Assembly (NCBI GenBank): GCA_964387845.1
Contig: CAYLXA010000006.1
Coordinates: 96,001 to 160,000 of the forward strand
Source of the DNA: an uncultured bacterium
Lineage (GTDB): Bacteria; Omnitrophota; Omnitrophia; Omnitrophales; Abzuiibacteriaceae
DNA length: 64,000 bases
Reading direction: 5' to 3'
Below, piece after piece: positions 29,573 through 58,615 of this stretch (the stretch's first letter is position 1; each line of letters opens with the position of its first letter). The position numbers and the translations under genes were made by a program. The notes beneath the pieces were generated by a model. It ran no database searches. It saw only the letters and a list, made by a program, of their open reading frames with translations, and had not been told where the DNA came from.

Positions 29573-29638
29573 GCGGGTATTGAAGAATTGAAGAGAAGAA
29601 AAATAAAATTCAGAGGGAAGTAGAGGGGATAAAAGAGA

Positions 29639-39687: not shown

Positions 39688-39688
39688 T

Positions 39689-40195
39689 ATGAGAAAAACA
39701 TCTCGGAAAACAGTTCGGAAATCAAGCCAGCAGCTTCTATGGGCGCCTTGGCGAGCGCCTTACATTCAGCATATTGCCCAACCCAAAGGCTGTGTTTTTT
39801 GCAGGGCGATCAGGAGTTCAAAAGATGCTGAAAATCTCGTAGTGAAGCGCAGCCGTCATTCGTTTGCAATTCTGAATTTGTATCCTTACAACAATGGCCA
39901 TCTGCTCATCGTGCCGAAACGCCATGTACCGGAATTCAGCCGGCTTACGGATCGTGAAATCCTGGATTTGATGGCCCTTCAAAATAGTATGCTGAAACGC
40001 ATCAAACAAAAACTGAAACCGGACGGATTTAATGTCGGCGCCAATCTCGGCAGAGTCGCGGGCGCCGGAATTCCGGGTCATTTGCATCTGCACATCGTTC
40101 CGCGCTGGCGCGGCGACACCAACTTCATGCCGGTTATCGGAAAGACCAAAGTCATCTCTCAATCGCTTGCGGCATTGCGCGATCTGCTACAATAG
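39689..40195 (+). CDS. HIT-family hydrolase
   Basis: Histidine triad GHLHLHIVPRW, with an upstream CVFC zinc-binding-like motif. 1-nt gap after the ATPase gene. Confidence 0.85.
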   Translation: MRKTSRKTVRKSSQQLLWAPWRAPYIQHIAQPKGCVFCRAIRSSKDAENLVVKRSRHSFAILNLYPYNNGHLLIVPKRHVPEFSRLTDREILDLMALQNSMLKRIKQKLKPDGFNVGANLGRVAGAGIPGHLHLHIVPRWRGDTNFMPVIGKTKVISQSLAALRDLLQ

Positions 40196-40198
40196 GGC

Positions 40199-41314: not shown

Positions 41315-41326
41315 CGATGTAAGTAT

Positions 41327-43018: not shown

Positions 43019-43246
43019 GTGAATGACCTTTCAGCCGTTAATCCAGCCGGTCCGACGCCAAAAATCAGCTTGAAAATCGAAAAACCGCGTGACCAAAGTA
43101 TTCACGGTTTTTTTAACACGCTTCTAATCATTTCGTTTTTATTGATTGCTGCGACTTTGTGGGTGCTCGCGCTTGAATATTTGGACATGCCGGCACCGAT
43201 GTGGCTTCTTGATTTGATTGATGAATTGAAGCTCATTTTCGCTTGA
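43019..43246 (+). CDS. small single-pass membrane protein, hypothetical
   Basis: 75-aa ORF with the hydrophobic helix LLIISFLLIAATLWVLAL. No recognisable homology by eye. Confidence 0.4.
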   Translation: MNDLSAVNPAGPTPKISLKIEKPRDQSIHGFFNTLLIISFLLIAATLWVLALEYLDMPAPMWLLDLIDELKLIFA

Positions 43247-43255
43247 TAATTAGAT

Positions 43256-43720
43256 ATGACACGACGCGTTGCCCTCAAGCCTGCCGCCATCCTTCTGATT
43301 CTAGGTATTTTTTTGGCTTTCCCGTGGCTGAGCGGCTACACGTTTCTTCAATATATGAAAATGAAGCACAGTGTTACGATTCACGGTTTTTGGTATCCTT
43401 CTTATTTCCCGATCGGAAAGTTTTATGTGCGTCAATTAAATGCGGATTGGAAAGATGATTTTCGAATCCAGTCCGGGACGCTTGAAGTCCAATATAATCC
43501 GTTTCTGTTTTCAATTTCGCGCGGTGGTGTTTCGTTGAAAGGGCGCGATCTGGAGGTTTCGGTGAAGAAATTGAACTCAAATCTCAAAGTGAAAGGGCCG
43601 TTTGTCGTAAACCGGTTTGATGCCAAGCTGGAATTGCGGCCTCGCGCAGAGCCCTTCATCCACTCGCTTGAAATTGACTCGCCGGTGATTCAATTCAAAA
43701 TCAACGGGCAATCGGCATGA
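43256..43720 (+). CDS. hypothetical exported / membrane-anchored protein
   Basis: 154 aa. N-terminal signal-anchor (AAILLILGIFLAFPWLSG). Overlaps the next gene by 4 nt. Confidence 0.5.
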   Translation: MTRRVALKPAAILLILGIFLAFPWLSGYTFLQYMKMKHSVTIHGFWYPSYFPIGKFYVRQLNADWKDDFRIQSGTLEVQYNPFLFSISRGGVSLKGRDLEVSVKKLNSNLKVKGPFVVNRFDAKLELRPRAEPFIHSLEIDSPVIQFKINGQSA

Positions 43721-44439
43721 ACCTCTATTCCGGAAAAAATTTCTCAGCACCTTCTGTGCTGATTTCGCTGTGTGTGCACGCCGGTATTTTACTCATCGGC
43801 CATGCGGCAGTAGCGTATTCGTGGGTGATTCCGATTCAGACGGAACAGAGCATCCTGCTTGAGTTAAATTCGTCGGCATCCCATCCAAAATCGTCCGCAC
43901 AGAAAGCGGCGCTGCCCAAGACCGAAGAGAAGCCGCAGAATCCTGCGCCGGAAAAGGAAAAATTAGCGGATGCGGCGCCAAAAAATTCAGGTTGGGACAA
44001 CCGCGAATTTCAAGACCGGCAAGCCAGGATGGATCAAAAAATTGAACTAATCCGTGAACAAATTAGAAAAATCAAAGAAGGCCAATCCACAGGCGCCGAA
44101 TTGAAAGGCTTCGAGCTGATTTCGGCAGGCCTTGATAGCGAATCGTGGCGGTCTTATTTGGCAAAGCTTCGGCGGCAAGTTCTTGAAAAATGGTATCCGA
44201 TGATTCTTTCACGAGAAAGCCAATTAAAAACCAGCGAAGCGCGGCTTGATTTCTATATCGGGACGGATGGGCGAGTGGTGGCTTATGAAATTGCAGATTT
44301 AAAAGGCGTGCCTGTTTTTGGTGAAATTTGTTTGGAAGCTTTCCGGCGTGCTATTGGGACCGAAGCAAGCCTTGCGAGACAAGCGGTGAAGCCCGTCGGC
44401 AATTTCCTAAAGGTGTCGCTCTTTTTTTATTACCAATAG
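43717..44439 (+). CDS. TonB-family C-terminal-domain protein (N-terminal TM anchor, Pro/Lys-rich linker, TonB-C-like domain)
   Basis: VLISLCVHAGILLIGHAAV anchor. PKSSAQKAALPKTEEKPQNPAPEKEK linker. C-terminal WYPMIL...DFYIGTDGRVVAYEIADLKGVPVFGEICLEAFRRA resembles the TonB-C fold signature. Confidence 0.5.
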   Translation: MNLYSGKNFSAPSVLISLCVHAGILLIGHAAVAYSWVIPIQTEQSILLELNSSASHPKSSAQKAALPKTEEKPQNPAPEKEKLADAAPKNSGWDNREFQDRQARMDQKIELIREQIRKIKEGQSTGAELKGFELISAGLDSESWRSYLAKLRRQVLEKWYPMILSRESQLKTSEARLDFYIGTDGRVVAYEIADLKGVPVFGEICLEAFRRAIGTEASLARQAVKPVGNFLKVSLFFYYQ

Positions 44440-44545: not shown

Positions 44546-46036
44546 ATGAAATTGTTGGGTGAGTTTTTGCAGGATATCCGGTATCAATGGAATGGCCGGG
44601 GATCTTTATTTGTTCCGGTTCATCGCGTGGTATCGGATTCGCGCATTGTTCAGAAGGGTGATATTTTCGTTGCGTTGAAAGGGCCGCTTGCGGACGGCCA
44701 TGATTTTATACCGCATGCGGCAAGCCGTGGCGCAGCGGCCATTATTGCGGAAACCAAGCTGAATCCGTCAACCAATCTCCAAGACACCGCTTTTCTCCAA
44801 GTCGAAGACAGCCATTTTGCATTCAGCCGTTTACTGACAAGATTGCACGGCCTGGAGGCACGGCCCATTCAATTAATCGGCGTTACAGGCACCAACGGCA
44901 AGACAACGATTACTTACTTGATCCGATTTTTGCTGAACCAGCTTTCGGCTTGCGGCCTAATCGGAACCGTGCGCTACGAGTGGGCGAATAAATCCATCGA
45001 GTCTAAAAACACAACACCGGGCCTCGGGCAGCTCATTCCGCTTCTTTCCGACATGGTCCAAGACGGCATGAAATATTGTGTGGCTGAAATTTCAAGCCAC
45101 GGGCTTGATCAAAACCGCCTTGCCGGGCTTGATTTCACGGCTGCTGTTTTTACGAACCTGACGCAAGACCACCTGGATTATCACCGCACGCTTGAAAATT
45201 ATTATTTGGCAAAACGCAAACTTTTTGTATCTAAGCCGGCGCCGAAATTTTCGGCGGTTAATTTAGACGATGAGTACGGCCGGAGACTGTTGTCGGAGTT
45301 GGGCAAACGTGCCGTTAGTTTTGGTTTTGACGCGGGCGCTACTTACCGTGCTCAAAATGAAAAAGTAACGCTCGAAGGTTCCGAGTTTGATCTCATTTAC
45401 CGGGGGGGAACCCACCGCGTTAAAACCAATTTACCGCTCCGGCATAATATTTATAATGTCTTAGCGGCGCTCAGCATTCTTTCAGAACTTGATTTTGCTC
45501 TGGAGCAATTAATCCCGCTGCTTCCCAAGTTTCCGGGCGTGCCTGGGCGCATGGAGCGTGCAGATGCGAAGGGCGGCGCGCTTGTGTTTGTGGATTACGC
45601 GCACACGCCGGACGCTGTTTTTAATGTGCTGTCATCGGCGCGGCCGCTTGTAGGCGGAAAAATCATCACCGTCTTGGGCTGCGGCGGCAATCGCGATAAA
45701 GGCAAGCGCCCTTTGATGGGCCGTATCGCCGGTGAAGGATCTGACATTGCAATCGTGACGAGTGATAATCCAAGAAATGAAGAGCCGCAATCGATTCTGG
45801 ACGCCATTCGGCCGGGGATAGCGGAAGGCAGGCAAGCCGAATTTATTTTAGACCGCAAAAAAGCGATTGAGCGCGCCATTGAATTGGCGGGCCCCAAAGA
45901 TGTGGTGCTCATTCTCGGAAAAGGACATGAAAAGTATCAAATCGTCGGCGATCAAACGCTTCCGTTTGATGACGTTGAGGTTGCGCAAGAATGTTTAAGA
46001 AAAAAGGCGGGTAAATCACATGCTGTCCATTCCTGA
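44546..46036 (+). CDS. murE: UDP-N-acetylmuramoyl-L-alanyl-D-glutamate--2,6-diaminopimelate ligase
   Basis: 496 aa. Mur ligase motifs (GVTGTNGKTT, DNPR...E). First gene of the dcw-type cluster. Confidence 0.92.
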   Translation: MKLLGEFLQDIRYQWNGRGSLFVPVHRVVSDSRIVQKGDIFVALKGPLADGHDFIPHAASRGAAAIIAETKLNPSTNLQDTAFLQVEDSHFAFSRLLTRLHGLEARPIQLIGVTGTNGKTTITYLIRFLLNQLSACGLIGTVRYEWANKSIESKNTTPGLGQLIPLLSDMVQDGMKYCVAEISSHGLDQNRLAGLDFTAAVFTNLTQDHLDYHRTLENYYLAKRKLFVSKPAPKFSAVNLDDEYGRRLLSELGKRAVSFGFDAGATYRAQNEKVTLEGSEFDLIYRGGTHRVKTNLPLRHNIYNVLAALSILSELDFALEQLIPLLPKFPGVPGRMERADAKGGALVFVDYAHTPDAVFNVLSSARPLVGGKIITVLGCGGNRDKGKRPLMGRIAGEGSDIAIVTSDNPRNEEPQSILDAIRPGIAEGRQAEFILDRKKAIERAIELAGPKDVVLILGKGHEKYQIVGDQTLPFDDVEVAQECLRKKAGKSHAVHS

Positions 46037-47432
46037 AATCGCCGGCGCGTGCCGCGGAAAAATCATTGGTCTGCAAACCAGTGTCCTGTCGGGCATTTCT
46101 ACGGATACAAGGAATATTAAGCCGGGTTCGGTTTTTTATGCGTTGCGCGGAAAGAATTTTAACGGCCATCAATTTTTACAAGACGCTTTCCGGAAGGGTG
46201 CCGCTGTCGCCGTCGTTGATGACCAATTTGCCAGAGCGTCATCCGAAGCCTTGTCGCAGCTCGGCGCTTCCAACACGCTTATTGTTGTTCCGGATGTTTA
46301 TCGAGCGCTTTTAGATTCTGCGTGTGCTTACCGCCAAAAATTCAAGATTCCCGTCGTAGGTATCACCGGAAGCGCCGGAAAAACGACGACAAAGGAATGT
46401 GTTCGCGCCATTTTAGGCTTGCGTTACCAAACACTTTCCAACATTGGTAATTTCAATAATCACATTGGCCTCCCGCTCAGTATTTTCGAAATGAATCAAG
46501 CAACGCAGGCCGCTGTCTTCGAGCTTGGCGCCAATAAATCCGGCGATATTCGCGAACTTTGTGAAACAGCCCGGCCAACCGTTGGTGTTTTGACCTGTGT
46601 TCAGCCCGTTCATTTGGAGGGATTCGGCTCTCTCGACAATATTTACAAAACCAAGCTTGAGCTTGCCGGATGGATCGCATCTCAAAAAGGTGTCATGATT
46701 ATTTATGGTGACGACCCCGAGCTTTTGAAAAGAGCGAAAAAAATTTCTTCTAAACTAAAAACATTCGGCCGGGGGAAAGGTTGTGATTACCGCGTTTCAA
46801 ACGAGCGGCAAGACGGTGAGCGGATTCGTTTTACAATCAATGAAAAATTCGACTTTTCCGTGAAAGCCATGGGCCTTTTCAACGTGCTGAATTTTGCAGC
46901 CGGCATCGCGGCGGCGGCCGAATTGAAATTAGATTTGAATGATCTTGCCCGGGATTGGCACGACTTTCAGCCGGCAGCCAATCGGTTTGAAATCGAACGT
47001 ATGGAAAATCCCAAGGTTGTGTTTGTCAAAGATTTTTATAATTCCAACCCGGTTTCATTTCAGATTGCTTTGCAAGCATTTGAAGCGCTTCCATCCGAAG
47101 GCAGGAAGATCATTGTGGCGGGTGATATGCTCGAGCTTGGTCCGGATGCAGCGAAATATCATGGGGAGTTGGGAGAGCAAGCCGGCAAAAGCCGCGCGAA
47201 CGCTTTCATTTATATCGGAAAATACGCAGAGCCCGCCGCAGCCGCAGCGCGGAAGCTCAACCATCAGATTCAGATTGCGACATTTTCCGACAATCAACAT
47301 GCAGCCGATTATTTATCCGGATTTTTACGTGACCGCGACTGTGTGTTTATGAAAGCTTCGCGCGGCATGAAGTTTGAAGAAATTTTGAATGCACTTAAAA
47401 ATGTTCCGGATTTATCGTTAACACATCCGTAA
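46020..47432 (+). CDS. murF: UDP-N-acetylmuramoyl-tripeptide--D-alanyl-D-alanine ligase
   Basis: 470 aa. GITGSAGKTTTKE P-loop and Mur ligase C-domain. Overlaps murE by 17 nt. Confidence 0.92.
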   Translation: MLSIPEIAGACRGKIIGLQTSVLSGISTDTRNIKPGSVFYALRGKNFNGHQFLQDAFRKGAAVAVVDDQFARASSEALSQLGASNTLIVVPDVYRALLDSACAYRQKFKIPVVGITGSAGKTTTKECVRAILGLRYQTLSNIGNFNNHIGLPLSIFEMNQATQAAVFELGANKSGDIRELCETARPTVGVLTCVQPVHLEGFGSLDNIYKTKLELAGWIASQKGVMIIYGDDPELLKRAKKISSKLKTFGRGKGCDYRVSNERQDGERIRFTINEKFDFSVKAMGLFNVLNFAAGIAAAAELKLDLNDLARDWHDFQPAANRFEIERMENPKVVFVKDFYNSNPVSFQIALQAFEALPSEGRKIIVAGDMLELGPDAAKYHGELGEQAGKSRANAFIYIGKYAEPAAAAARKLNHQIQIATFSDNQHAADYLSGFLRDRDCVFMKASRGMKFEEILNALKNVPDLSLTHP

Positions 47433-47445
47433 GGAAAGGGGAAAC

Positions 47446-48534
47446 GTGTTTTATTATTTTCTTTATCCGCTGAGTGATCATTCAATTTTGTTTAACGTTT
47501 TTAAATACATCACATTCCGCTCGGTCGGGGCGAGCGTGACCGCCTTTTTGTTCTGCATTTTTATGGCACCGGCCGTTATTGATTGGCTGAGCCGTTTGTG
47601 CGTGGTCAATTCCACAAAGCGCGAACATGCGCAATCGATTCATAAATTCTATGAGCATAAAGGCAAAGTGCCGACAATGGGCGGCGTTCTGATCGTCGGC
47701 AGCATTCTTCTTTCGTGCCTTTTGTGGGGCAATTTCGGAAACGCGTTTTTTAATTTATCGCTGATTGTCTTGATTTTGTTTGCCGCTGTCGGTTTTTTGG
47801 ATGATTACATTAAATTGAAATCTAAAAGCTCAAGAGGCCTAAGCGCGCGCGTCAAATTGGCGGGACAATTGGGCGCTGGTTTACTGCTCGCAGTTTATCT
47901 TTTTTGGGATCCTGCAGTGGATACTAAATTATTTATTCCGTTTTTCAAGACTGCCACCGTGATGCTGGGCTGGCTTTATATTCCGTTTGTGGTGCTCGTG
48001 CTGGTCGGTACATCCAACGCCCTTAATTTAACCGATGGGCTTGACGGGCTTGCGATCGGCTGCTTCACCATCGCAGCTGGTGTTTTTGGGCTTATTTGCT
48101 ATATCGTGGGCCGTATCGACTATGCCACTTATTTAGAAGTCCGCTATATTGCCCAAGCAGCGGAACTGTCCATATTTTGCGCGGCCCTTGTCGGCGCGGC
48201 CCTTGGTTTTCTTTGGTATAATTCCTATCCTGCGAGTATCATGATGGGCGACACAGGCTCTCTTGCACTTGGCGGCGCGTTGGGCACGATTGCCATTTTA
48301 GTCAAAAAGGAAGCTATTTTAATCGTCGTCGGCGGCGTTTTTGTGTGGGAAGCGCTTTCTGTTATTTTGCAGGTGTTTTGCTATAAAAATTTTAAAAAGC
48401 GGATATTTTTAATGTCGCCCTTTCATCATCACCTACAACTGAAAGGCTGGCCCGAATCCAAAGTGACGATCCGGCTGTGGATTGTCGCGTTTATTTTGGC
48501 GCTTCTCGGACTCAGCATGCTGAAATTGAGATGA
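47446..48534 (+). CDS. mraY: phospho-N-acetylmuramoyl-pentapeptide transferase
   Basis: 362 aa polytopic protein. NLTDGLDGLA and MGDTGSLALG MraY motifs. Confidence 0.93.
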   Translation: MFYYFLYPLSDHSILFNVFKYITFRSVGASVTAFLFCIFMAPAVIDWLSRLCVVNSTKREHAQSIHKFYEHKGKVPTMGGVLIVGSILLSCLLWGNFGNAFFNLSLIVLILFAAVGFLDDYIKLKSKSSRGLSARVKLAGQLGAGLLLAVYLFWDPAVDTKLFIPFFKTATVMLGWLYIPFVVLVLVGTSNALNLTDGLDGLAIGCFTIAAGVFGLICYIVGRIDYATYLEVRYIAQAAELSIFCAALVGAALGFLWYNSYPASIMMGDTGSLALGGALGTIAILVKKEAILIVVGGVFVWEALSVILQVFCYKNFKKRIFLMSPFHHHLQLKGWPESKVTIRLWIVAFILALLGLSMLKLR

Positions 48535-49829
48535 GCTCAACTCAAGAAGCGAAAACCGGTTCTGAAACGGCCAACACCGCTGTGAAGTTGGTCGGCGAGT
48601 CTGTTTCTGTCCTTGGGCTTGGAAAAAGCGGATTTGAAAGCGCGAAGTTTCTTGCCAAGCGCGGCGTTCAAGTGTTTGCCAGCGAATCCAAATTCTCGCC
48701 GGAATTACTCAAGCGCAAAGAAGAGCTCGAACAGCTTGGTGTCCGCGTTGAAATCGGAAAACATTCCATCCGATCGATCGCGCGGGCCGATCGTGTCATT
48801 ATTTCTCCCGGGATCCCGCCGTCTGCGCCGGTCTATGAATCGCTTCGGAAAAAGAAAATCCCGATTTGGAGCGAAATCGAACTGGCATATCAATTTTGCC
48901 CGGCACCCATTATTGCCGTGACCGGGACGAACGGAAAAACGACCGTCACATCATTAATTGCGCGAATTTTATGCGCCAATCAGTTTCATGCGATTTCCTG
49001 CGGCAACATTGGCAACCCGCTGATCGGTGAAATCGAAAATTTAACGGATCAATCCATTGCTGTCACTGAGGTTAGTTCGTTTCAACTCCAAAACATTGAT
49101 CAATTTCGTCCCTATATCGGTATCGTGCTTAATCTCACCGTTAATCACCTAGACTGGCACGCCAATTTTGCAGAATACGCGGCAGCCAAATGGAACTTGT
49201 TTAAAAATCAAAGGCCGCACGATTATGCGTTTTTAAATGCCGACGATATTGAAAGCATGCACCGCGCGGATTTGATTCAATCGCAAAAAGTTTATTTCAA
49301 CGGCGGCGAGCACGAAAACCCGAATTTTGCGGCGTGCCTTGCAGTGGCGAATTTGTACCGGCTGGATGATCACAAAACGCGAAAAATCATCGATGAATTT
49401 CCCGGCATTGAGCATAGGCTCGAAAAAGTGCCGTCCCGGGATGGTTTTCGGTACTTTAATGATTCGAAATCAACGACAATCGCATCGCTCGGTTGGGCGC
49501 TTGACCGGATGAAAGACAAAGCCGTATTAATCATGGGCGGTAAGCATAAAGGCGGTGATTTTTCGGTCTTACGCGATAAAATAAAATCAAAAGTTCGTTT
49601 TTTGGTTTTAATCGGAGAGGCCGCGCCGGTTTTGGAGAAAGCCTTTGGAAGAATTGTTAAAACCATGACGGCGCCCAATTTGGAACAAGCGGTCCGGCAG
49701 GCGCGTGCGGCGGCTTGCGCAAGTGACGCCATTTTATTTTCGCCGGCGTGTGCAAGTTTTGATATGTTCGAAAATTACGAAGACCGGGGCCGGAAGTTTA
49801 AAGCCATTGTTCAAAGCTTTCAGAAATAA
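48531..49829 (+). CDS. murD: UDP-N-acetylmuramoylalanine--D-glutamate ligase
   Basis: Start taken at ATG 48531 (ATGA overlap with the mraY stop; MSSTQEAKTG...VSVLGLGKSG) rather than the upstream in-frame extension at 48477. GTNGKTT P-loop. Confidence 0.9.
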   Translation: MSSTQEAKTGSETANTAVKLVGESVSVLGLGKSGFESAKFLAKRGVQVFASESKFSPELLKRKEELEQLGVRVEIGKHSIRSIARADRVIISPGIPPSAPVYESLRKKKIPIWSEIELAYQFCPAPIIAVTGTNGKTTVTSLIARILCANQFHAISCGNIGNPLIGEIENLTDQSIAVTEVSSFQLQNIDQFRPYIGIVLNLTVNHLDWHANFAEYAAAKWNLFKNQRPHDYAFLNADDIESMHRADLIQSQKVYFNGGEHENPNFAACLAVANLYRLDDHKTRKIIDEFPGIEHRLEKVPSRDGFRYFNDSKSTTIASLGWALDRMKDKAVLIMGGKHKGGDFSVLRDKIKSKVRFLVLIGEAAPVLEKAFGRIVKTMTAPNLEQAVRQARAAACASDAILFSPACASFDMFENYEDRGRKFKAIVQSFQK

Positions 49830-49869
49830 AACCGGCCAACATTAATCTTCATGATTATTTGAGATCCTC

Positions 49870-50979
49870 ATGTCACAAGAATCCAGAAGCATTTTTATTG
49901 TGATGCTTCTTTTAATTGCCGTCGGCGTGATCATGATCTACAGCGCTAGCGCGGTGTTTGCGGACCAATTGTTCGGAAGTTCCACTTATTTCCTGCGCCG
50001 TCAGCTTTTTTATTTAATTTTGGGCCTTCTGGCGTTCGGTGTTAGTTACTATGCAAACCCCGAATTTTTAAGAAGTCACGCAAAGGGGCTCATGATTTTC
50101 GCTTTTTTCATACTGCTCCTCGTTTTTATTCCCGGGCTCGGCCATTCGGCGGGCGGTGCGCGGCGCTGGATCGGTTTCTCGTTTTTTACATTCCAACCTG
50201 TTGAATATGCGAAACTGGCGGTTTGTTTGTATCTATCGGACTACCTCACCCGAAAAATGAAATTGATGGTAACGGGGGACCATATGGTTTTAGTTCCGCC
50301 TATCGCAATACTGCTTTTTATGCTCTCACTTTTAATCGCGCAGCCTGATCTTGGTTCAACTATTTTTGTTTTAATGATCGCAGGCATTTTGTTCATTTTG
50401 GCCGGCATCCGGCTGAGATATATTGCCATGGCAGTGGTTCCGGTCGTTTTTGCCATCGTTATTTTGATCATCAAGGCGCCGTACCGGATGAACCGCATCG
50501 CGGCTTTCTTGGATCCCTGGAAGGACCCGCGCGGCACGGGATTTCAAATTATTCAATCGTTTCTTGCGTTTTCATCCGGGGGCGTGAAGGGTGTAGGGCT
50601 CGGCCAAAGCACCCAAAAATTATTTTATTTGCCGCAAAGCTACACCGATTTTATCTTTTCAATTATTGCCGAAGAGCTTGGTCTTATCGGCGCGTTGTTT
50701 GTGGTTTCGCTCTACGGTTGTTTTTTTGTGATGGGCGTCCGGATTGCCAACAAAACACACGACCCGTTTTACCGCCTCTTTGCTTATTCACTGGTGCTGA
50801 TTATTACACTGCAGGCTTTGATCAATATTCTGGTGACAACCGGGCTTGTGCCGACCAAAGGGCTTCCGCTTCCGTTCGTCAGTTACGGCGGTACTTCACT
50901 TATTTTTAATATGATCGCAGTCGGTCTTCTGCTGGCGATTGACCGTCATATTGTTTATAGATCTCCCGCTTATCGTTAA
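49870..50979 (+). CDS. ftsW: peptidoglycan glycosyltransferase FtsW (SEDS family)
   Basis: 369 aa with about 10 TM helices. Conserved FtsW/RodA motifs (PDLGS, SGGVKGVGLGQS, TDFIFS). Confidence 0.9.
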   Translation: MSQESRSIFIVMLLLIAVGVIMIYSASAVFADQLFGSSTYFLRRQLFYLILGLLAFGVSYYANPEFLRSHAKGLMIFAFFILLLVFIPGLGHSAGGARRWIGFSFFTFQPVEYAKLAVCLYLSDYLTRKMKLMVTGDHMVLVPPIAILLFMLSLLIAQPDLGSTIFVLMIAGILFILAGIRLRYIAMAVVPVVFAIVILIIKAPYRMNRIAAFLDPWKDPRGTGFQIIQSFLAFSSGGVKGVGLGQSTQKLFYLPQSYTDFIFSIIAEELGLIGALFVVSLYGCFFVMGVRIANKTHDPFYRLFAYSLVLIITLQALINILVTTGLVPTKGLPLPFVSYGGTSLIFNMIAVGLLLAIDRHIVYRSPAYR

Positions 50980-50983
50980 CGCT

Positions 50984-52072
50984 ATGAGAGAGGCGCCAAA
51001 ACATTCGATAGTGATTACAACCGGAATGACGGGAGGGCATTTTTTCCCGGCTTTGAGTTTTGCGGAAAGTTTTGCAGCCGCACATCCTGATTTTGAAGTT
51101 CATTTTCTGCTTCCGCGCGAGAATAAACGATTTGATCTGGCACGCGTGAATCCTAAAATTTCCTTTCACCCGATTCCAGTCGAGCCTTTTCCGCGCGCTT
51201 TTAGTTTAAAGCTCATGTCTTTTTTGATACACTATCTGCGTTCTTTGAGAGCTACTTTTCAATTTTTTTCCCGCAGAAAACCGGCGGTAATTGTAAGTTT
51301 CGGGAGTTACGGCTCATTTCCAGGTGTTTTATGTGCTTGGGTTCTTGGAATTCCCGTAGTCTTGCATGAACAAAACCGGATTGCGGGCTGGGCAAATCGT
51401 TTGGCGTCTTTTTTAGCAACGTATGTGGCGGTATCGTTTTCTGATACGAGCGGGATCGTGTTGAAAGGCAAAATCAAAAAAGTCGGATATCCGCTTAGAA
51501 AAGAAATTTTGGAAGCGGCTCATAGAAAACAGAGCGAGGCAGCAAACAGCCGGCCGGCGAATATTCTCGTTTTGGGAGGTTCACAGGGTGCCTCAGCCAT
51601 CAATGAGGCTGTTTTAGAGCTCTTCGATAAATTATCTGTTGAGGAAAAACAAAAATTAGCCGTAATACATATCACCGGCGAGGCGCAGCATTCCGAGGTT
51701 TTGAAGCGCTATCAAGCGAACGGCGTGAAACATCAAGTGTTCGCGTTTTCGGATGAAATGCATCGCTGGTACGAGCAGGCGGATCTTGTGATTGCGCGTG
51801 CCGGCGCAGGAACGGTCTTTGAGTTGATCGAATTTAATTTGCCGTCGGTTTTGATTCCGTATCCGTTTGCACATTCGCATCAATTCAAAAATGCGCAATA
51901 TTTGGAAGAAAAACGGATGGCTATGATTATCGAACAAACGGAATTAACAGCGACGCGGCTTCACAGTGCAATTTTTGAAATGTTGAAGCGTTTTGATCAA
52001 AAGGACAAGTCGCCGCGCGTGATGCAAAATCCGAATCAAAATTTTATTCAGTTGGTTGATCAATTGATTTAA
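50984..52072 (+). CDS. murG: undecaprenyldiphospho-muramoylpentapeptide beta-N-acetylglucosaminyltransferase
   Basis: Start taken at ATG 50984, just after the ftsW stop (MREAPKHSIVITTGMTGGHFFPALS...). GT28 N- and C-domains (GGSQGA). Confidence 0.9.
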   Translation: MREAPKHSIVITTGMTGGHFFPALSFAESFAAAHPDFEVHFLLPRENKRFDLARVNPKISFHPIPVEPFPRAFSLKLMSFLIHYLRSLRATFQFFSRRKPAVIVSFGSYGSFPGVLCAWVLGIPVVLHEQNRIAGWANRLASFLATYVAVSFSDTSGIVLKGKIKKVGYPLRKEILEAAHRKQSEAANSRPANILVLGGSQGASAINEAVLELFDKLSVEEKQKLAVIHITGEAQHSEVLKRYQANGVKHQVFAFSDEMHRWYEQADLVIARAGAGTVFELIEFNLPSVLIPYPFAHSHQFKNAQYLEEKRMAMIIEQTELTATRLHSAIFEMLKRFDQKDKSPRVMQNPNQNFIQLVDQLI

Positions 52073-52097
52073 GAGCAGTCAACCATGAGGGCGTCCT

Positions 52098-53510
52098 ATG
52101 ACACAGTTACAGCAGGCGGTTAAGGACATTCAAAGTCTTTTACAGCCCGGAAAACGGGCTCATTTAATCGGTGTGGGCGGCGTCGGCATGAGTGCGCTTG
52201 CCAAGGTTTTGAAGCATATGGGCCTTGCCGTCAGCGGATCCGATATGAAAGCAGGCCGCGTCGCTTCCGAGCTCACTTCCGGCGGCATTCAGATTTTCAA
52301 CGGGCATGATAGCCACAACGTTTCCAATTGCGATTTCATTATTTATTCTTCCGCCATCCGTGTTGACAATCCCGAAAGGCGCCAGGCGCTGATTAGCGGT
52401 ATTCCGTCTTTTCATCGCGCAGAAGTTTTGTCGAATATCATGAACCGGGGTATTTCAATCGGCGTTACAGGCACGCACGGTAAAACAACCACATCGGCCC
52501 TCATTAGCTTTTTGCTTCAAGCTGCAGGTTTACGCCCGACTTGTTTGGTGGGTGGTAATATTTTAAATTTCGGATCCAACACGCTGCTTGGCGATCCCAA
52601 TCTTTTTGTCGCAGAAGTGGACGAGAGCGATAAAAGCCATTTGAATTTTAAGCCTGATTTTGCGGTTTTGACCAATCTCGAAGAAGACCACATGGATGTC
52701 TATCAGGATTTTGCGAATCTGCAGCTCGCATTTTCCCAGTTTGTCGAAAACATTCAGCACTCGGGACATGTGATCTTTTCGGCGCACGATTCAAACCTAA
52801 AGGAGATTACGCGCATTACAACCCGCAAAACGGATTACGGATTGTCGCGCAATTACGGTTTTGGAGCAGAAGAAGTTGTGTTGGAGGGCTTTCAGTCGCG
52901 CTTCCGGCTTTACGAAAAAGGTGAATTTATTTCAACGGTTTCGCTAACCGTGCCGGGCATGCACAACGTGCTGAATGCGCTTGGCGCAATCGCGACGCTC
53001 AGAACCTTTGGAATTCCGTTCAGAAGTTTCGAAGCAGCGCTCCCCAAATTTCGCGGTGCCGGACGTCGGCTCGAGGTGAAGCTTGAGCATCGCGGCTGGA
53101 CCGTTATTGATGATTACGCGCATCATCCCACGGAAGTGATTGCGTCATTGAAAGCAATTCGGACATTGGGCAAACCGACGACGGTGGTGTTTCAGCCGCA
53201 CCGGTATTCGCGCATGCAGTATCTCGGAGAGTCGTTTTCTAAAGCATTTCATCATGCAGATTGCCTCATTTTAACGGATATTTACAGTGCAAATGAAGAG
53301 AATGCAAAAGGAATTGATGTGAGCGACTTGTATGAAATGGTAAAAAGTGCCGGGCATCCGAATGTTCGCATGGTAGCCCGCGATCAATTAATCGATCATT
53401 TGCTCCAGGACTCCGCAGGCGAAGGCGTGGTTGCCTTTCTCGGAGCCGGAGATATCGGAGAGGTGGCCTGTGAATTTGCCGAACGGCTTCGTGGTTCCGA
53501 TCCAGAATAA
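52098..53510 (+). CDS. murC: UDP-N-acetylmuramate--L-alanine ligase
   Basis: 470 aa. GVGGVGMSALA and GVTGTHGKTTTS motifs. Confidence 0.92.
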   Translation: MTQLQQAVKDIQSLLQPGKRAHLIGVGGVGMSALAKVLKHMGLAVSGSDMKAGRVASELTSGGIQIFNGHDSHNVSNCDFIIYSSAIRVDNPERRQALISGIPSFHRAEVLSNIMNRGISIGVTGTHGKTTTSALISFLLQAAGLRPTCLVGGNILNFGSNTLLGDPNLFVAEVDESDKSHLNFKPDFAVLTNLEEDHMDVYQDFANLQLAFSQFVENIQHSGHVIFSAHDSNLKEITRITTRKTDYGLSRNYGFGAEEVVLEGFQSRFRLYEKGEFISTVSLTVPGMHNVLNALGAIATLRTFGIPFRSFEAALPKFRGAGRRLEVKLEHRGWTVIDDYAHHPTEVIASLKAIRTLGKPTTVVFQPHRYSRMQYLGESFSKAFHHADCLILTDIYSANEENAKGIDVSDLYEMVKSAGHPNVRMVARDQLIDHLLQDSAGEGVVAFLGAGDIGEVACEFAERLRGSDPE

Positions 53511-54405
53511 CGTTCCGCTTTGCCGGTTTTCAACTTTGCAAATCGGCGGCCCGGCTGCCTATTTTGCAGAGCCGGATACGCGCGAAGCACTATTACCGCT
53601 TCTGGAATTTCAAAAACAGGAAAATCTCCCGCTTCTTGTAATCGGCCGCGGTTCCAATATTTTATTTTCCGACGAAGGATTCCCAGGGCTTGTTATTTCG
53701 CTTCGGAAATTTGAACTCGAACGCATTCAATTCAATCCCAAAGGCCTAGTAAAAGTTTCCGCCGGTATGAGCCTTTTTCGATTGTCCGCATTATGCCAGG
53801 AGCAGGGAGTGAGCGGGCTTGAATTCATTTGCCACATTCCCGGCACTGTCGGCGGTGCTTGCGCCATGAATGCCGGTTTCGGCCGCGCCGGGGTTCATTA
53901 TCAGGAAATCAAAGACGTTCTAAATTCGGTCACGGTTTTGGATGCGGCAACAAGCAAATTGCGTGTGATTCAACGCAGTGAAATTGATTTTCAATACCGC
54001 AAAAGCAGTCTCGAGCGGGAAATTGTTTTAGATGCCACGTTCCAATTAAAGCCATCCACACGCGAGGCGGTGCGAGATGAAGTAAAAGCCAACTTTGCTT
54101 ATCGGAATTCCGTGCAGGATCTGCGCTATCCGAGCGCCGGATCCGTTTTTAAGAATCCGAAAAAACCCACGGAATCAGCCGGGAAGCTGATCGACCGCGC
54201 AGGGCTTCGCGGAACGCGGATCGGCGGCGCCATGATTTCGGAAAAACACGGCAATTTTATTTTAAACGTCGGAAATGCAAAGTCAGCCGACGTTTTGCAG
54301 CTTATTGATTTGGCAAAATCTCGGGTTCTTGAGCAGTTTGGTATTGAGTTAGAGCCCGAAGTAAAACTGATGGTGCCCGGCTTGTCGTCTGCGTGCGCCG
54401 TTTAA
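53431..54405 (+). CDS. murB: UDP-N-acetylenolpyruvoylglucosamine reductase (start uncertain; may use an internal GTG around 53470-53495)
   Basis: FAD-binding domain (LCRFSTLQIGGPAAYF, LVIGRGSNILFSD) and a MurB C-domain. The ORF-track start overlaps murC by 80 nt, so the true start is probably further downstream. Confidence 0.85.
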   Translation: MPFSEPEISERWPVNLPNGFVVPIQNNVPLCRFSTLQIGGPAAYFAEPDTREALLPLLEFQKQENLPLLVIGRGSNILFSDEGFPGLVISLRKFELERIQFNPKGLVKVSAGMSLFRLSALCQEQGVSGLEFICHIPGTVGGACAMNAGFGRAGVHYQEIKDVLNSVTVLDAATSKLRVIQRSEIDFQYRKSSLEREIVLDATFQLKPSTREAVRDEVKANFAYRNSVQDLRYPSAGSVFKNPKKPTESAGKLIDRAGLRGTRIGGAMISEKHGNFILNVGNAKSADVLQLIDLAKSRVLEQFGIELEPEVKLMVPGLSSACAV

Positions 54406-54435
54406 TGCAAACTCCACAACATTGACAGGGAATTC

Positions 54436-55365
54436 GTGAAATCGTTTAATCAAATCTGCGTACTTTTGGGAGGTAACTCGCACGAACGTGAAATTTCAAT
54501 CCGTTCTGGATCTGCAGTGGCCGAAGCGCTTGTCCGCTCCGGGTTCGAAGTCTCGCAGCTTGATGCTAAAAACGGCTGGCGTGAAAAACTCAAAAATAAA
54601 AAACCTGACGCAGTATTTGTGGCGCTTCACGGTACCGGCGGAGAAGACGGCGAGGCGCAAAAAGTTTTAGAGGGCCTCGGAATCCCTTATGTCGGTTCCA
54701 GCCCTGATGCAAGTTTGGATGCTTTTGATAAACTCCGCTCCAAAAGAATATTCGAGAAAGAATCCATTCCGACCCCGGCCTGGGCCCTCATCACCGGAAA
54801 AAATTGGAAAAAGAAAATTGAAGAGCTGAAAATCCCGATTTTTATCAAGCCGATTGCCGATGGTTCCAGCATCGGCGTTGAATTAATCGAATCTGAAATT
54901 GAACTAGAGCCGACGATCGAAAAGAGCCTTAAACAGTACGAATCCATCATTGTTGAAACTGCAATCCAGGGAAGGGAGTTTACGGTCGGTATTTTAGGAG
55001 ACCAGGCGTTGCCCGTATTGGAAGTGAGGCCGAAGCGCCGTTTTTATGATTACACAGCCAAATATACGAAAGGGCAGACGGATTATCTCGTCCCGGCACC
55101 GATTGATGAGAATTTTGCCGTCAAGCTTCAAGCGCTTGCGTTAAAAACGCACTTAGCTTTGGGGCTTCGCGATTTTTCAAGAGTTGACATGATTGTTGAT
55201 CTGGCCGGAAATCCGTATATTTTAGAGGCCAATTCAATTCCGGGTTTTACTGAAACAAGTCTTTTGCCAAAAGCGGCCCAAGCAGTCGGAATTAGTTTTG
55301 ATAAGTTGTGCGTGAAATTAGTAGAGCTTGCGTATCAGCGAGTTGCGGGGAAGGTTTATGCGTAA
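54436..55365 (+). CDS. ddl: D-alanine--D-alanine ligase
   Basis: 309 aa ATP-grasp enzyme. VLLGGNSHEREISIRSG N-terminus. VALHGTGGEDG. Confidence 0.92.
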   Translation: MKSFNQICVLLGGNSHEREISIRSGSAVAEALVRSGFEVSQLDAKNGWREKLKNKKPDAVFVALHGTGGEDGEAQKVLEGLGIPYVGSSPDASLDAFDKLRSKRIFEKESIPTPAWALITGKNWKKKIEELKIPIFIKPIADGSSIGVELIESEIELEPTIEKSLKQYESIIVETAIQGREFTVGILGDQALPVLEVRPKRRFYDYTAKYTKGQTDYLVPAPIDENFAVKLQALALKTHLALGLRDFSRVDMIVDLAGNPYILEANSIPGFTETSLLPKAAQAVGISFDKLCVKLVELAYQRVAGKVYA

Positions 55366-56167
55366 GCGTTCAAACCGCGGAAAATCAAAAAATATTTTCG
55401 TCCGTCTTTTTGAAAAAATATTTCTTTTGTTTTTCTTGCTATGGAAAAGCATCCCAATCCTAATTATTGCCGCAATTTTTTACTTCTCATTTTTCGGTGT
55501 CAAAGATTTGTTAAGTGCGGATTCTCATTTTCAAATCGCCAGTCTTAAAATTTTTCCGCGCGGCATATTGACTGATCAGGAATATCAGGCGCTCGAGCGG
55601 CGTTCAACCGGTGTTAATTTACTCAAAGCCGACCTCCGGACGCTCAGGGCAATGATTGAAACAAATCCCAAAGTTAAGCAGGCGGATGTGGTCCGAAAAC
55701 TTCCAAATGAACTGGAAATTACGCTGACGCCTCGAAAAGTGGCCATGCAGTTTCGGACGTCGCCCCGCGGCCCGTTCTACACGCTCGGCGAAGATGCGGT
55801 CGTGATGTCGTCGGCAGATTCCCGGGATTTATCGCTCATTGAATTCTCGAATTTTGACTATGCCGCGAAACGCCTTTCGCCTCTTGACCGTTATTCCGAT
55901 CCTTCTTGGCACAAGCTCCAGTCGATTTTGGACTCTTTGAAAAAGCATGACGCAACAAAGCGGGAAAAGGTTGACCGCGTATCAGTTGATAAAACCGGAA
56001 ATTTTACGGTGTCGTTTGTAGGCGGTCTTGAGCTTGTACTGCGTGATACGAGCGATATGACAAACCAAAAAATGATAGCGCTCGGGAACTTGTTGGCGTC
56101 ACCGGAACGGGACTTGATTGCTTATATTGATTTGCGCCACCTTGACATTATTTTGAAGTACAAATAA
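55358..56167 (+). CDS. ftsQ: cell division protein FtsQ (POTRA domain)
   Basis: Start taken at ATG 55358 (overlaps the ddl stop; MRKRSNRGKS...). Single TM helix, then POTRA and FtsQ beta-domain-like sequence. Confidence 0.8.
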   Translation: MRKRSNRGKSKNIFVRLFEKIFLLFFLLWKSIPILIIAAIFYFSFFGVKDLLSADSHFQIASLKIFPRGILTDQEYQALERRSTGVNLLKADLRTLRAMIETNPKVKQADVVRKLPNELEITLTPRKVAMQFRTSPRGPFYTLGEDAVVMSSADSRDLSLIEFSNFDYAAKRLSPLDRYSDPSWHKLQSILDSLKKHDATKREKVDRVSVDKTGNFTVSFVGGLELVLRDTSDMTNQKMIALGNLLASPERDLIAYIDLRHLDIILKYK

Positions 56168-56185
56168 AACAACGCACCGTTTAGC

Positions 56186-57424
56186 ATGAACCAAAAGCCG
56201 CTTATCCGCTACATTCTGCACATCGGTACCGTCAAAATATCGTTCCTGAAAATACTCTTTAAACCGACCGGCCAGCGCGAAATTTTAAAAACCGTAACCT
56301 GCAGTTCGGACGGTTTTGACAAAGGAGTCGTGACAGACCTGTCCAAGGCTGCCGAAAGCATTCACCAGGGGCTTAAAGTGATTACGAGCGGTTCTAACGA
56401 GTCGCTGATTCCATGCCGGGTCGTCGTGTCAAACGGCCATCTTAAAAACTATACCTATTCGAGTTCGCTTTATTTTTACGGCAATTCGCATGAGCTCAGC
56501 ATGAAGGATGTCCGCGATGTGATTGCCCAAACCCGCAGTGTAGCCACAATCCCGCTGAACGAAATGATTATCCAGGCTATTCCGCAGGAATTTTTGGTAG
56601 ACAATATGGCTGGTATTTCAAATCCGATCGGCCTCGAAGCGACGCGGCTTGGCGTTACGTTACGGCTTTTTACGACCGAATATAGTATTTATCAAAATTT
56701 ATTAAAAGCAACCGAGCGCGCCGATGTAGACGCGCGGGATATCGTACCGACCTCTCTGACATCCGCTCACGCCGTCCTCACACAGGAAGAAAAGCAGGAG
56801 GGTGTAATCTTGATTGATGTGGGCGGTCACGCAACACATGTGGTTGCGTTTCAAAACGGCATTTTGCAGGAATCAAAATCATTTCAGGATGGATCTGAGG
56901 TGATTACGGATGCTCTTGCGCGAAAATACAATCTCAAACTGGATGAAGCGCGCCGCGTTAAAGAAACCTATGCTTCTTTGTCAAAGAAGCCTGAATTTGC
57001 CGACGAGCTTATCCCGATTTGCGACAAGGAAGGGCATAAAAGCTCACATGTTTCAAAATCGGAATTGCAAACCGAAATTGAAAGTTCTCTTTCAATTTTT
57101 ACGCACAAACTGCTGGACCCGGCGCGTCACATGATTAAAAAGCACGCACCAATTACGCAAGTTGTCATGACAGGCGGCGGCGCGAAGCTGGACGGTCTTT
57201 TAGAGTTTGTTCAGCAGGAGCTTGGCTCGAGCGTGCGGCTCGGTGTTGCGAAGAATATTTTTGGAGATCAAAAAGTCATTAATGATCCCGCTTTCGCGGG
57301 CGCCATCGGCGCTTCGGACTATTCTAGTTTTATCATGGATCCCATCACGGTTCTCAACCAATCCGGAAACGCGGTTTATAAAATCCTCAACACGGCCAAA
57401 CGCTGGGTTTCCGAATACTTCTGA
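56186..57424 (+). CDS. ftsA: cell division protein FtsA
   Basis: 412 aa actin-fold ATPase (LIDVGGHATHVVAF, MTGGGAKLDGL). It is not followed by ftsZ. Confidence 0.88.
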   Translation: MNQKPLIRYILHIGTVKISFLKILFKPTGQREILKTVTCSSDGFDKGVVTDLSKAAESIHQGLKVITSGSNESLIPCRVVVSNGHLKNYTYSSSLYFYGNSHELSMKDVRDVIAQTRSVATIPLNEMIIQAIPQEFLVDNMAGISNPIGLEATRLGVTLRLFTTEYSIYQNLLKATERADVDARDIVPTSLTSAHAVLTQEEKQEGVILIDVGGHATHVVAFQNGILQESKSFQDGSEVITDALARKYNLKLDEARRVKETYASLSKKPEFADELIPICDKEGHKSSHVSKSELQTEIESSLSIFTHKLLDPARHMIKKHAPITQVVMTGGGAKLDGLLEFVQQELGSSVRLGVAKNIFGDQKVINDPAFAGAIGASDYSSFIMDPITVLNQSGNAVYKILNTAKRWVSEYF

Positions 57425-57490
57425 AGTTTGTTTTCCTCTTTATATTTAGCTGACCGACTGCTATAATTCACACCTTATTAACCGCTTATC

Positions 57491-58615
57491 ATGACTGCTA
57501 CTATTATGACTCAAGACATACGCAAACTTCCGCTGCACAACACGCACGTTCAGCTGGGCGGTAAAATGGGCGCTTTCGGCGAATGGGAAGTGCCGCTTTA
57601 CTATTCAAGCATTCTCGAAGAGCATGCAGCCGTCCGTGAAAAATGCGGGATTTTTGATATTTCTCACATGGGCGAAGTTTGGTTTAGAGGTTCGAATGCG
57701 CGCAAAGCGCTCAATTCTTTGCTTCCGGGGAAAATTGAAAAGCTGGTGCCCGGCAAAGCCGTTTACAGCCCGATGCTGAATGAGCGAGGCGGCATTGTGG
57801 ATGATTTGATTGTTTCGCAGATTGACGCGGATTCTTATCTCGTGGTTGTCAACGCCGCCAACGTGGAAAAGGATTACAATTGGTTTCTGGCGCACAATCC
57901 GTTGAAAGCTGAAATTGTTAACGAAAGCGATGCGTTCGGTTTGTTAGCGGTTCAGGGCCCCGAAAGCGCAAAAGTCGTGTCGCAAGTTTTTTCAGACGAT
58001 ATTCTCAAGCTTCCGTATTACCACATCCAAAAATCGGACATTCCCTGGAAGGGAAGTTATATTTCCCGGACCGGTTACACGGGAGAAATCGGCTTTGAAA
58101 TTTTTCTGGCCCAAAAAAATTTAAAACCCGCGTATAATACATTTCTTGAAATTGGAAAATCGTTCGGAATCAAACCCATTGGATTTGGCGCGCGCGATAC
58201 TTTGAGGCTTGAGTCCTGCATGCTGCTGTACGGGCAAGACATGAATGATGACACCTCGCCGCTCGAAGCCGGGCTTGAATGGACTTTGGATCTCGAGAAA
58301 GATTTTGTCGGAAAAGATCCGCTCGTCAAATTAAAAACGCAGGGAATCGCGAAGAAGCTTGTCGGATTTGAAATGATTGACCGCGGACTTGCGCGCCATG
58401 ACTATTCTGTTTTTAAAAACGGAAAAATAATCGGAAAAGTAACGAGCGGAACGTTTGCACCGACTTTGAAGAAAAATATCGGTCTAGCCTATGTCGATAC
58501 GCCGGAATCTGCGGTCGGCAATGAAATTCAAATTCAGATCCGAGACCAACAGGCGAAAGCCAGAATTGTGAAAACGCCTTTTTACAAAAAAAATACCACG
58601 AAGGAGATTGTATGA
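57491..58615 (+). CDS. gcvT: glycine cleavage system aminomethyltransferase T
   Basis: 374 aa. Typical GcvT N-terminus (LHNTHVQLGGKMGAFGEWEVPLYY...FDISHMG). Confidence 0.93.
   Translation: MTATIMTQDIRKLPLHNTHVQLGGKMGAFGEWEVPLYYSSILEEHAAVREKCGIFDISHMGEVWFRGSNARKALNSLLPGKIEKLVPGKAVYSPMLNERGGIVDDLIVSQIDADSYLVVVNAANVEKDYNWFLAHNPLKAEIVNESDAFGLLAVQGPESAKVVSQVFSDDILKLPYYHIQKSDIPWKGSYISRTGYTGEIGFEIFLAQKNLKPAYNTFLEIGKSFGIKPIGFGARDTLRLESCMLLYGQDMNDDTSPLEAGLEWTLDLEKDFVGKDPLVKLKTQGIAKKLVGFEMIDRGLARHDYSVFKNGKIIGKVTSGTFAPTLKKNIGLAYVDTPESAVGNEIQIQIRDQQAKARIVKTPFYKKNTTKEIV

Follow-up and report, generated by a model that had tools for sequence, protein, structure and literature searches.

Whether a division and cell-wall (dcw) gene cluster that stops at ftsA belongs to a bacterium that has lost FtsZ, or to one that encodes it elsewhere, is the question raised by a stretch of 64,000 nt, here called the window, from an uncultured Abzuiibacteriaceae bacterium (GCA_964387845.1, contig CAYLXA010000006.1, positions 96,001-160,000, forward strand). 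Among bacterial division proteins, FtsZ is the most conserved, and it is usually anchored to the membrane by FtsA. In the window, eleven closely packed co-directional genes, murE-murF-mraY-murD-ftsW-murG-murC-murB-ddl-ftsQ-ftsA (44546-57424, + strand), follow the standard dcw order from murE to ftsA, which is identical in 80 related loci. Analysis with Pfam and NCBIfam bears out what the first-pass annotation of this DNA had described, namely a cluster without ftsZ at its 3' end and without mraZ, rsmH, ftsL and ftsI at its 5' end. That annotation left two readings side by side, loss of ftsZ or its presence, with ftsI, elsewhere in the genome. Each of them fits one end of the cluster: loss is strongly favoured for the 3' end, and the 5' end is the one where relocation applies. 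Taken together, it is likely that this organism divides without FtsZ and with a remodelled FtsA, and that the 5' block has moved.

The host belongs to the Omnitrophota, within the Planctomycetes-Verrucomicrobia-Chlamydiae (PVC) superphylum, class Omnitrophia, order Omnitrophales, near Abzuiibacterium, an assignment that is, together with the anatomy of the cluster, close to certain. The nearest FtsA homologues that bear a name are all Candidatus Omnitrophica, with 40-54% identity, and nameless relatives reach 83-84%. The best matches of an FtsW profile, scanned against one genome per species, are Omnitrophota metagenome-assembled genomes (MAGs). The PVC membership that the first-pass annotation had suggested agrees with these relatives and with a PVC-specific marker, a Minf_1886-family protein (TIGR04138, 'Plancto_Ver_chp'; 62597-63022, +), which scores 138 bits against a cut-off of 60. 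The gene for this marker sits between lplA and a UvrD helicase gene in all close relatives. The sequence read for the organism itself is the 64-kb window, and relatives and controls were fetched as loci of +/-10 kb, numbered L002, L009 and so on. According to the genome table of Seymour et al. (2023), three of these loci come from Omnitrophia/Omnitrophales: Abzuiibacterium crystallinum is the source of L009 (2.5 Mb, with an estimated completeness of 100%), Danuiimicrobium aquiferis that of L012 (3.0 Mb, likewise 100%), and a member of the family 01-FULL-45-10b that of L013.

Neither FtsZ nor a class B penicillin-binding protein (PBP), MraZ or RsmH was found in the window, either by Pfam on all large open reading frames (ORFs) or by tblastn (E<=1e-3). 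The FtsZ queries from Escherichia coli and Bacillus subtilis gave no tblastn match there. A hidden Markov model (HMM) of 31 FtsZ sequences scored at best 7.9 bits on the six-frame ORFs of the window, against 515 bits for the positive control, and had no match in the window and 19 Omnitrophota loci. In other phyla the gene is normally found directly past ftsA, as the first-pass annotation had assumed: it begins 18-444 nt after ftsA in 31/31 control loci, from phyla that include Nitrospirota, Acidobacteriota, several Desulfobacterota-type lineages, Nitrospinota, Firestonebacteria, Atribacterota, and Binatia. In contrast, ftsZ follows ftsA in none of 16 Omnitrophota lineages, whose FtsA is 24-100% identical to that of the window and in which 1.9-10 kb downstream were inspected (Fisher p = 6.7e-13, for lineages that are not phylogenetically independent). 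The place past ftsA is taken by gcvT in the family-level relatives of the window, by BatD in L006, L010, and L011, and by peptidase U32, aminotransferases or an epimerase in other Omnitrophota loci. The unlinking of ftsZ from ftsA is therefore not a peculiarity of the window, but a trait of the whole phylum.

Four of the 16 loci counted as Omnitrophota carry vague NCBI labels ('bacterium', 'uncultured Planctomycetales'), and their inclusion is an inferred assignment, made because their layout is the same as that of the other Omnitrophota loci. The FtsI of two of them, L020 and L024, falls among Omnitrophica-named proteins with 61-73% identity, and L035 shares about 90% identity with L027, an Omnitrophota locus. 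The public MAG loci L024, L035, L056, and L020, labelled 'uncultured Planctomycetales', 'uncultured Planctomycetia' or 'bacterium', show an Omnitrophota-type dcw layout, and these organism labels are probably wrong or imprecise. A separate observation concerns L027 (17260-18850) and L035 (17233-18823), where yggS (pyridoxal phosphate-binding, Ala_racemase_N) and proC come after ftsA, with a slight overlap. One control, L051, has yggS-proC about 0.85 kb past ftsZ. A clean excision of ftsZ from an ftsA-ftsZ-yggS-proC arrangement, at which L027 and L035 hint, was considered and set aside as too thin, since this single control has the arrangement.

In the window itself, the stop codon of ftsA has its last base at 57424, and a spacer of 66 nt (57425-57490, +), where ftsZ would be expected, separates it from the ATG of gcvT at 57491, so that the distance given in the first-pass annotation is exact. 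The gcvT gene (57491-58615, +; GCV_T, E 1e-86) marks the 3' boundary of the cluster and opens the glycine-cleavage operon, the gene order being gcvT-gcvH-gcvPA-gcvPB-lplA. The window stems from a metagenome assembly, a setting in which a chimeric contig could have joined ftsA to an unrelated glycine-cleavage operon. This explanation is refuted, and its probability is negligible, because the identical junction is seen in six independent assemblies and is therefore no assembly artefact. It is present in Logan SRR15237813 (the same organism), in SRR10398028 and SRR25730292 (a relative with 83% identity), in ENA ERZ978390 and JGI 3300027835 (a relative with 51% identity), and in NCBI PCVY01000047; of the numbered loci, L002, L004, and L009 show it. 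Within the spacer (57439-57467, +), an extended -10 promoter-like sequence, TTTATA-17 nt-TGcTATAAT, was noted as a consensus match only, and no terminator-like hairpin was found in these 66 nt. As far as such a match goes, transcription of the gcv operon may start from a promoter of its own.

The published record adds genomes to these loci. Seymour et al. (2023) surveyed 421 Omnitrophota genomes from 276 species, among them close relatives of the window at 100% estimated completeness. Supplementary Note 1 of that work states that the Omnitrophota lack ftsZ, with the exception of a single copy. This copy shares 89% identity with an archaeal protein, and the authors regard it as bin contamination or a very recent archaeal transfer. 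The same note removes the FtsZ-bearing 'Omnitrophica bacterium OLB16' from the phylum. The annotation tables of the survey list ftsA (TIGR01174, K03590), ftsQ, ftsW, ftsI (K03587, in at least two genomes), mreB, mreC, mrdA, rodA, and ftsB (K05589, in at least one genome), and their examined portion holds no K03531, TIGR00065, PF00091, PF12327, minC, minD, zapA or sepF, which is a supporting observation only. The loss of FtsZ in Omnitrophota is, in other words, already published, but in a supplementary note only and contrary to reviews of PVC division.

With these data, one can weigh the possibility that the genome carries a canonical ftsZ at another site and that FtsA tethers its product as usual. 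The 64 kb read leave room for it, rearrangement does occur here, as the clearly relocated 5' block of the clade illustrates, and some reviews place the Omnitrophota among the FtsZ-bearing PVC phyla. Nevertheless, a genuine ftsZ is missing from the 421 genomes of the survey, including close relatives with an estimated completeness of 100%; the gene is unlinked in 16/16 Omnitrophota lineages and in 0/31 controls; of the putative FtsZ-tail contacts of FtsA, one is lost in all and the other in most Omnitrophota sequences, as described below; and the 2016 review based its claim of an FtsZ on OLB16, an organism from outside the Omnitrophota. A canonical ftsZ elsewhere is thus very unlikely. The proposal made here is that the cluster stops at ftsA because this lineage, like the rest of the phylum, lost ftsZ outright rather than moving it, and the true absence of a canonical ftsZ from the genome, to which synteny, published work on the whole phylum, and the altered FtsA all point, is considered highly probable.

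If FtsZ has been lost, the next question is whether the remaining ftsA (56186-57424, +) still encodes a working FtsA. The protein scores 224.8 bits with TIGR01174 (cut-off 175.85) and 36 bits with PilM, and the TIGR01174 cut-off is passed in both Omnitrophota clades. It has the actin-like fold in which the FtsA-specific 1C insert (SHS2_FTSA, residues 85-161) replaces 1B, and its closest solved structures are the FtsA structures 7q6g and 7q6d. An AlphaFold model built on an alignment of 58 sequences reached a mean predicted local distance difference test (pLDDT) value of 89.3. When this model was compared with the PDB by Foldseek, the top 19 hits were all FtsA, with template modelling (TM) scores of 0.77-0.87 and including 4A2A from Thermotoga maritima, followed by PilM and MreB. 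The C-terminus, ...NTAKRWVSEYF, has its AKRWVSEYF kept throughout the Omnitrophota, and the model places a helix at 396-411, after a low-confidence, disordered linker. The hydrophobic moment of this helix is 0.59, compared with 0.57 for the membrane-targeting sequence of E. coli. Subdomain 1C is the most conserved part of FtsA in the clade of the window, with 77% pairwise identity against 47-55% in the other subdomains. In E. coli, it is through 1C that FtsA engages late divisome proteins, and 1C also makes the lateral contact in double filaments of FtsA.

Between the window and its 83% relative, ftsA shows a non-synonymous divergence (dN) of 0.10 and a ratio of non-synonymous to synonymous differences (pN/pS) of 0.13, while the synonymous divergence (dS) is saturated. 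Both values match those of mraY and murB and are below those of murF, murG, and ftsQ. The gene is real and under purifying selection.

Its product has nonetheless been remodelled. Residues were counted, in E. coli numbering, in 58 Omnitrophota FtsAs and in 32 FtsZ-associated FtsAs (those of the 31 control loci and E. coli). Arg R300 is present in 32/32 controls and in 0/58 Omnitrophota, and Glu E303 in 32/32 controls and in 11/58 Omnitrophota, being lost in the other 47; in the FtsA of the window the two residues are S and I. D242 (32/32 versus 0/58) and E255 (32/32 versus 6/58) follow the same pattern. Among a further 53 FtsA homologues, mostly from other phyla, R300 is found in 44/53 and E303 in 46/53. 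These two residues of subdomain 2B align with R301 and E304 of T. maritima, which reportedly form salt bridges to the FtsZ C-terminal peptide in the 4A2A structure. The lost residues are invariant in FtsZ-associated FtsAs, and in this sense the FtsA of the Omnitrophota is a remodelled protein.

The nucleotide-binding motifs have changed as well. The phosphate-1 motif (residues 11-17) reads LHIGTVK, compared with DIGT.K in the controls and EIGT in E. coli, with His in place of Asp and, in most relatives, Tyr at this position. The phosphate-2 motif (residues 211-218) reads DVGGHATH instead of DIGGGTxD, and in some relatives the first Asp is replaced too. G214 is kept in 6/58 Omnitrophota against 32/32 controls, and D217 in 1/58 against 29/32. 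The motif sequences suggest that ATP hydrolysis by this FtsA is weak or does not take place.

These degenerate motifs are an argument for regarding FtsA as a relic that is about to disappear, as it did in Planctomycetota and Chlamydiota, or as a protein that has left division for a PilM-like membrane-associated role. The score of the protein against E. coli-type FtsA, 135 bits compared with 271 bits for an FtsA control from an unrelated phylum, Atribacterota, goes in the same direction, and so does the fact that other FtsZ-less PVC phyla have mostly lost ftsA too. Such decay is hard to reconcile with dN and pN/pS as low as those of mraY and murB, with an ftsA kept directly after ftsQ across deeply divergent Omnitrophota classes, and with the strong conservation of the membrane helix and of 1C. 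A PilM-like role would also have to account for the clear preference for FtsA over PilM in both profile score and fold (TM 0.8 to FtsA and 0.6 to PilM). The relic or repurposed FtsA is consequently rated as quite unlikely.

The same purifying selection can be read in a different manner, with FtsA anchoring, by means of its changed interface, a hidden partner that forms the division scaffold, either a tubulin/FtsZ-like protein of strong divergence or some other cytoskeletal protein, overlooked by standard models. Divergent tubulin-family proteins do exist in PVC bacteria, such as BtubA/B in Prosthecobacter. The 2B region is altered and not deleted, which would suit a new partner, and the published absence of ftsZ was built on standard marker and KEGG orthology (KO) models. 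Against this, no candidate adjoins ftsA in the 16 lineages, the examined portion of the Seymour et al. (2023) tables contains no tubulin-family Pfam entry, and no positive evidence for such a protein was found. This partner is unlikely, and the reading followed from here on is that of division without FtsZ.

The 5' end of the cluster has a different history. In 63 loci, 2.5 kb or more of sequence is available 5' of murE; rsmH lies upstream of murE in 58 of them, and mraZ and an adjacent ftsI in most. All three of rsmH, ftsI, and mraZ are missing 5' of murE in five loci only: the window, L009, L010, L012, and L013. The distant Omnitrophota L014, L020, L024, L027, L035, and L056 have mraZ-rsmH-ftsL-ftsI directly 5' of murE, and in L014 the upstream ORFs were verified by matches to MraW (360 bits) and to PBP_dimer with Transpeptidase (276 bits). 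Since these distant members retain the block, the 5' truncation is a rearrangement within the Omnitrophales clade of the window and not a phylum trait. The cluster is thus proposed to begin at murE because the ancestor of this clade separated mraZ-rsmH-ftsL-ftsI from it, and the genome probably still carries the block at another place. FtsW is 89% identical to that of the relative whose FtsA is 83% identical, with a dN of 0.078; this strong constraint makes it very probable that its class B PBP partner is encoded elsewhere.

In place of the missing block, the window has three ORFs, each with one N-terminal hydrophobic segment and none with a Pfam match, in agreement with the unrelated small membrane proteins of the first-pass annotation. 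The first (43019-43246, +; ORF call and hydropathy) encodes a small membrane protein of 75 aa with one hydrophobic segment, marks the 5' boundary of the cluster, and has a 70-aa counterpart at the equivalent place in L009. The second (43256-43720, +) encodes a bitopic protein of 154 aa with an N-terminal transmembrane (TM)-like segment and no Pfam or NCBIfam match, and has counterparts 5' of murE in L009, L010, L012, and L013. The third (43717-44439, +) is a TonB/TolA-like bitopic protein of 240 aa, with weak NCBIfam TolA/TonB matches, a transmembrane segment, a charged linker, and a C-terminal domain, and it is kept 5' of murE in the clade of the window, at the usual position of ftsI. Small bitopic trios or pairs adjoin murE in the window (43019-44439, +), L009 (3305-4710), L010 (3453-4749), and L013 (2380-3699). 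These genes may be co-transcribed with murE, from which a gap of 106 nt separates them. Their interpretation as divergent FtsL and FtsI was rejected, as they lack PBP domains, are proteins with a single transmembrane segment, and the last one is TonB_C-like. Further upstream (38056-42994, +) are found a STAND/AAA_16 NTPase of 543 aa, a HIT protein, an HD_assoc-containing HD phosphohydrolase, and a GAF and HD_5 (HD-GYP-like) protein, the last three lying next to the small membrane ORFs. In L009 and L010, this HIT-HD-GAF/HD part is found in synteny 5' of their small membrane ORFs.

All genes of the cluster proper are encoded on the + strand. It opens with murE (44546-46036), the ligase adding meso-diaminopimelate (meso-DAP), which carries Mur ligase domains and scores 530.7 bits with NF001126 against a cut-off of 373. 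It is followed by murF (46020-47432), recognized by Mur_ligase, Mur_ligase_M, and Mur_ligase_C and by its position in the cluster, by mraY (47446-48534; Glycos_transf_4, E 4e-34), and by murD (48531-49829; MurD-like_N plus Mur ligase M and C domains), whose product of 432 aa starts as called on the Logan contig. The ftsW gene (49870-50979), for a SEDS glycosyltransferase, scores 400.7 bits with TIGR02614 (cut-off 337.5). Next come murG (50984-52072; 362 aa, Glyco_transf_28 N- and C-terminal domains), murC (52098-53510; Mur ligase domains), murB (53470-54405; FAD_binding_4 and MurB_C), and ddl (54436-55365; Dala_Dala_lig_N and Dala_Dala_lig_C). The ftsQ gene (55358-56167) is divergent: its product matches POTRA_1 with 32 bits (cut-off 23) and has no NCBIfam match, and its ortholog in L002 also has a weak FtsQ_DivIB_C match. 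Outside the cluster, 10 kb upstream and unlinked to it, a full-length ftsK (32252-34543, +) was recognized by Pfam from FtsK_4TM, FtsK_alpha, FtsK_SpoIIIE, and FtsK_gamma. The peptidoglycan pathway is retained, with murB through murG, mraY, ddl, and ftsW present and under purifying selection, and a full pathway has been reported for 176 complete Omnitrophota genomes (2026 preprint).

The rest of the window includes a standard nusA-infB-rbfA-(DHH/nrnA-like)-truB-ribF-rpsO-pnp-dut block (22319-31762, +), which indicates that the window is part of the core chromosome rather than of an island. At its start, a giant ORF (22-21606, +) of at least 7194 aa has no in-frame stop in bases 1-21 and probably extends past the beginning of the window. 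No Pfam domain was found in it when it was searched in three segments of 2400 aa. Very long proteins have been reported as a hallmark of the Omnitrophota (2026 preprint; West-Roberts 2023 preprint).

Compared with the canonical dcw cluster of E. coli and the 31 controls, the locus shares the eleven central genes from murE to ftsA, their standard order, orientation, and tight packing, and differs in having the gcv operon instead of ftsZ on the 3' side and three small membrane proteins in place of mraZ-rsmH-ftsL-ftsI. Verrucomicrobium spinosum, a PVC relative, has a canonical peptidoglycan pathway and adjacent ftsQ-ftsA too, but its ftsZ lies directly past ftsA and is essential, and is absent from this position in Omnitrophota. 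The closest parallels are the FtsZ-less, peptidoglycan-bearing members of the same superphylum (Chlamydiota; Planctomycetota such as Phycisphaerae, Brocadiia, and Planctopirus), which also have no ftsZ and have kept peptidoglycan synthesis, ftsW, ftsI, ftsQ, and ftsK. In Chlamydiota and Planctomycetota, however, ftsA and ftsB have been lost too, with few exceptions, and the dcw cluster is fragmented, whereas in Omnitrophota ftsA adjoins ftsQ in an otherwise intact cluster and ftsB is listed for at least one genome. With the solved FtsAs of E. coli and Vibrio (7Q6D, 7Q6F, 7Q6I) and of T. maritima (1E4F, 4A2A), the protein shares the fold, the 1C insert, and the C-terminal amphipathic helix. It differs from them in its low identity (19-25%), in R300/E303, D242, and E255 of 2B, and in the phosphate motifs.

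A mechanism can be proposed in which the full lipid II pathway, FtsW as septal synthase together with its class B PBP partner, FtsQ, and FtsK would all be retained. FtsA would sit on the membrane via its conserved C-terminal amphipathic helix, and its 1C subdomain would organize or activate the late divisome proteins (FtsQ, FtsW/FtsI, and FtsK). In this manner, FtsA may take over the role of a membrane-proximal scaffold without a Z-ring, possibly together with MreB, in parallel to the MreB- and FtsK-based divisome of the FtsZ-less Chlamydia. In Chlamydia, FtsK is the key protein of the early divisome, and in Planctopirus no dcw gene other than ftsK is essential. With the putative FtsZ-tail contacts gone and the nucleotide motifs degenerate, filament dynamics driven by ATP hydrolysis are doubtful. 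That FtsA acts in division without FtsZ is slightly favoured over the contrary. Walled Omnitrophota probably divide in a manner not yet described. The most specific form of the proposal, in which the Omnitrophota are the third PVC phylum dividing without FtsZ, and the sole one with an otherwise intact dcw cluster containing ftsQ-ftsA, and in which FtsA organizes septal peptidoglycan synthesis, is given an even chance.

Several points weigh against this interpretation. The absence of ftsZ is drawn from synteny, literature, and FtsA changes, with 64 kb of the genome read, and the survey of Seymour et al. (2023), which used standard marker and KO models, could have missed a very divergent tubulin-family protein. 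A 2016 PVC review counts Omnitrophica as FtsZ-bearing, although on the basis of the misassigned OLB16, and left undecided whether the absence of ftsZ from two other Omnitrophica genomes is real. A 2025 study puts Ca. Omnitrophota, represented by one genome, among the phyla with 'highly conserved' dcw genes. Regarding FtsA, T. maritima R301/E304, whose numbering was confirmed, are putative FtsZ-tail contacts, and the 2B helix is also near the longitudinal FtsA-FtsA interface, so that its change could reflect altered polymerization instead. The divergence of the Omnitrophota FtsA is moreover spread over all four subdomains, which are about equally distant from the controls; the idea that only the FtsZ site has decayed is therefore rejected, and the evidence that remains is the loss of otherwise invariant residues. 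At the 5' end, the ftsI of the clade of the window was not found among the best 120 matches of an Omnitrophota FtsI profile, which were all relatives from the other clade with at least 52% identity to a clade-B query. Finally, no experiment exists on any Omnitrophota division protein.

A literature search found no earlier description of an FtsA kept without FtsZ. The combination seen here, with ftsA and ftsQ in an otherwise intact dcw cluster, a phylum-wide loss of the putative FtsZ-binding pair, and degenerate nucleotide motifs, appears not to have been described before. The loss of the Arg/Glu pair in 2B could provide a simple sequence marker for FtsAs that are uncoupled from FtsZ.

Division of walled cells without FtsZ is an open question that has been studied so far only in Chlamydia and planctomycetes, both of them groups that lack FtsA too, the latter being, according to one review, the only bacteria that are free-living and undergo division without FtsZ. 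Some Omnitrophota may be free-living, as far as genome sizes of 2.5-3 Mb alone can suggest. If the proposed reading is true, it would contradict that claim, and would correct the reviews that count the Omnitrophota among the FtsZ-bearing phyla. A phylum in which FtsZ is gone and FtsA, FtsQ, FtsW, FtsI, and FtsK are kept would offer a natural experiment on FtsA acting alone, and would represent an intermediate stage of divisome erosion, in which FtsZ was lost before FtsA. It would also add another FtsZ-less lineage to the PVC superphylum, possibly by a separate loss, and would thereby alter the divisome reconstructed for the last PVC common ancestor.

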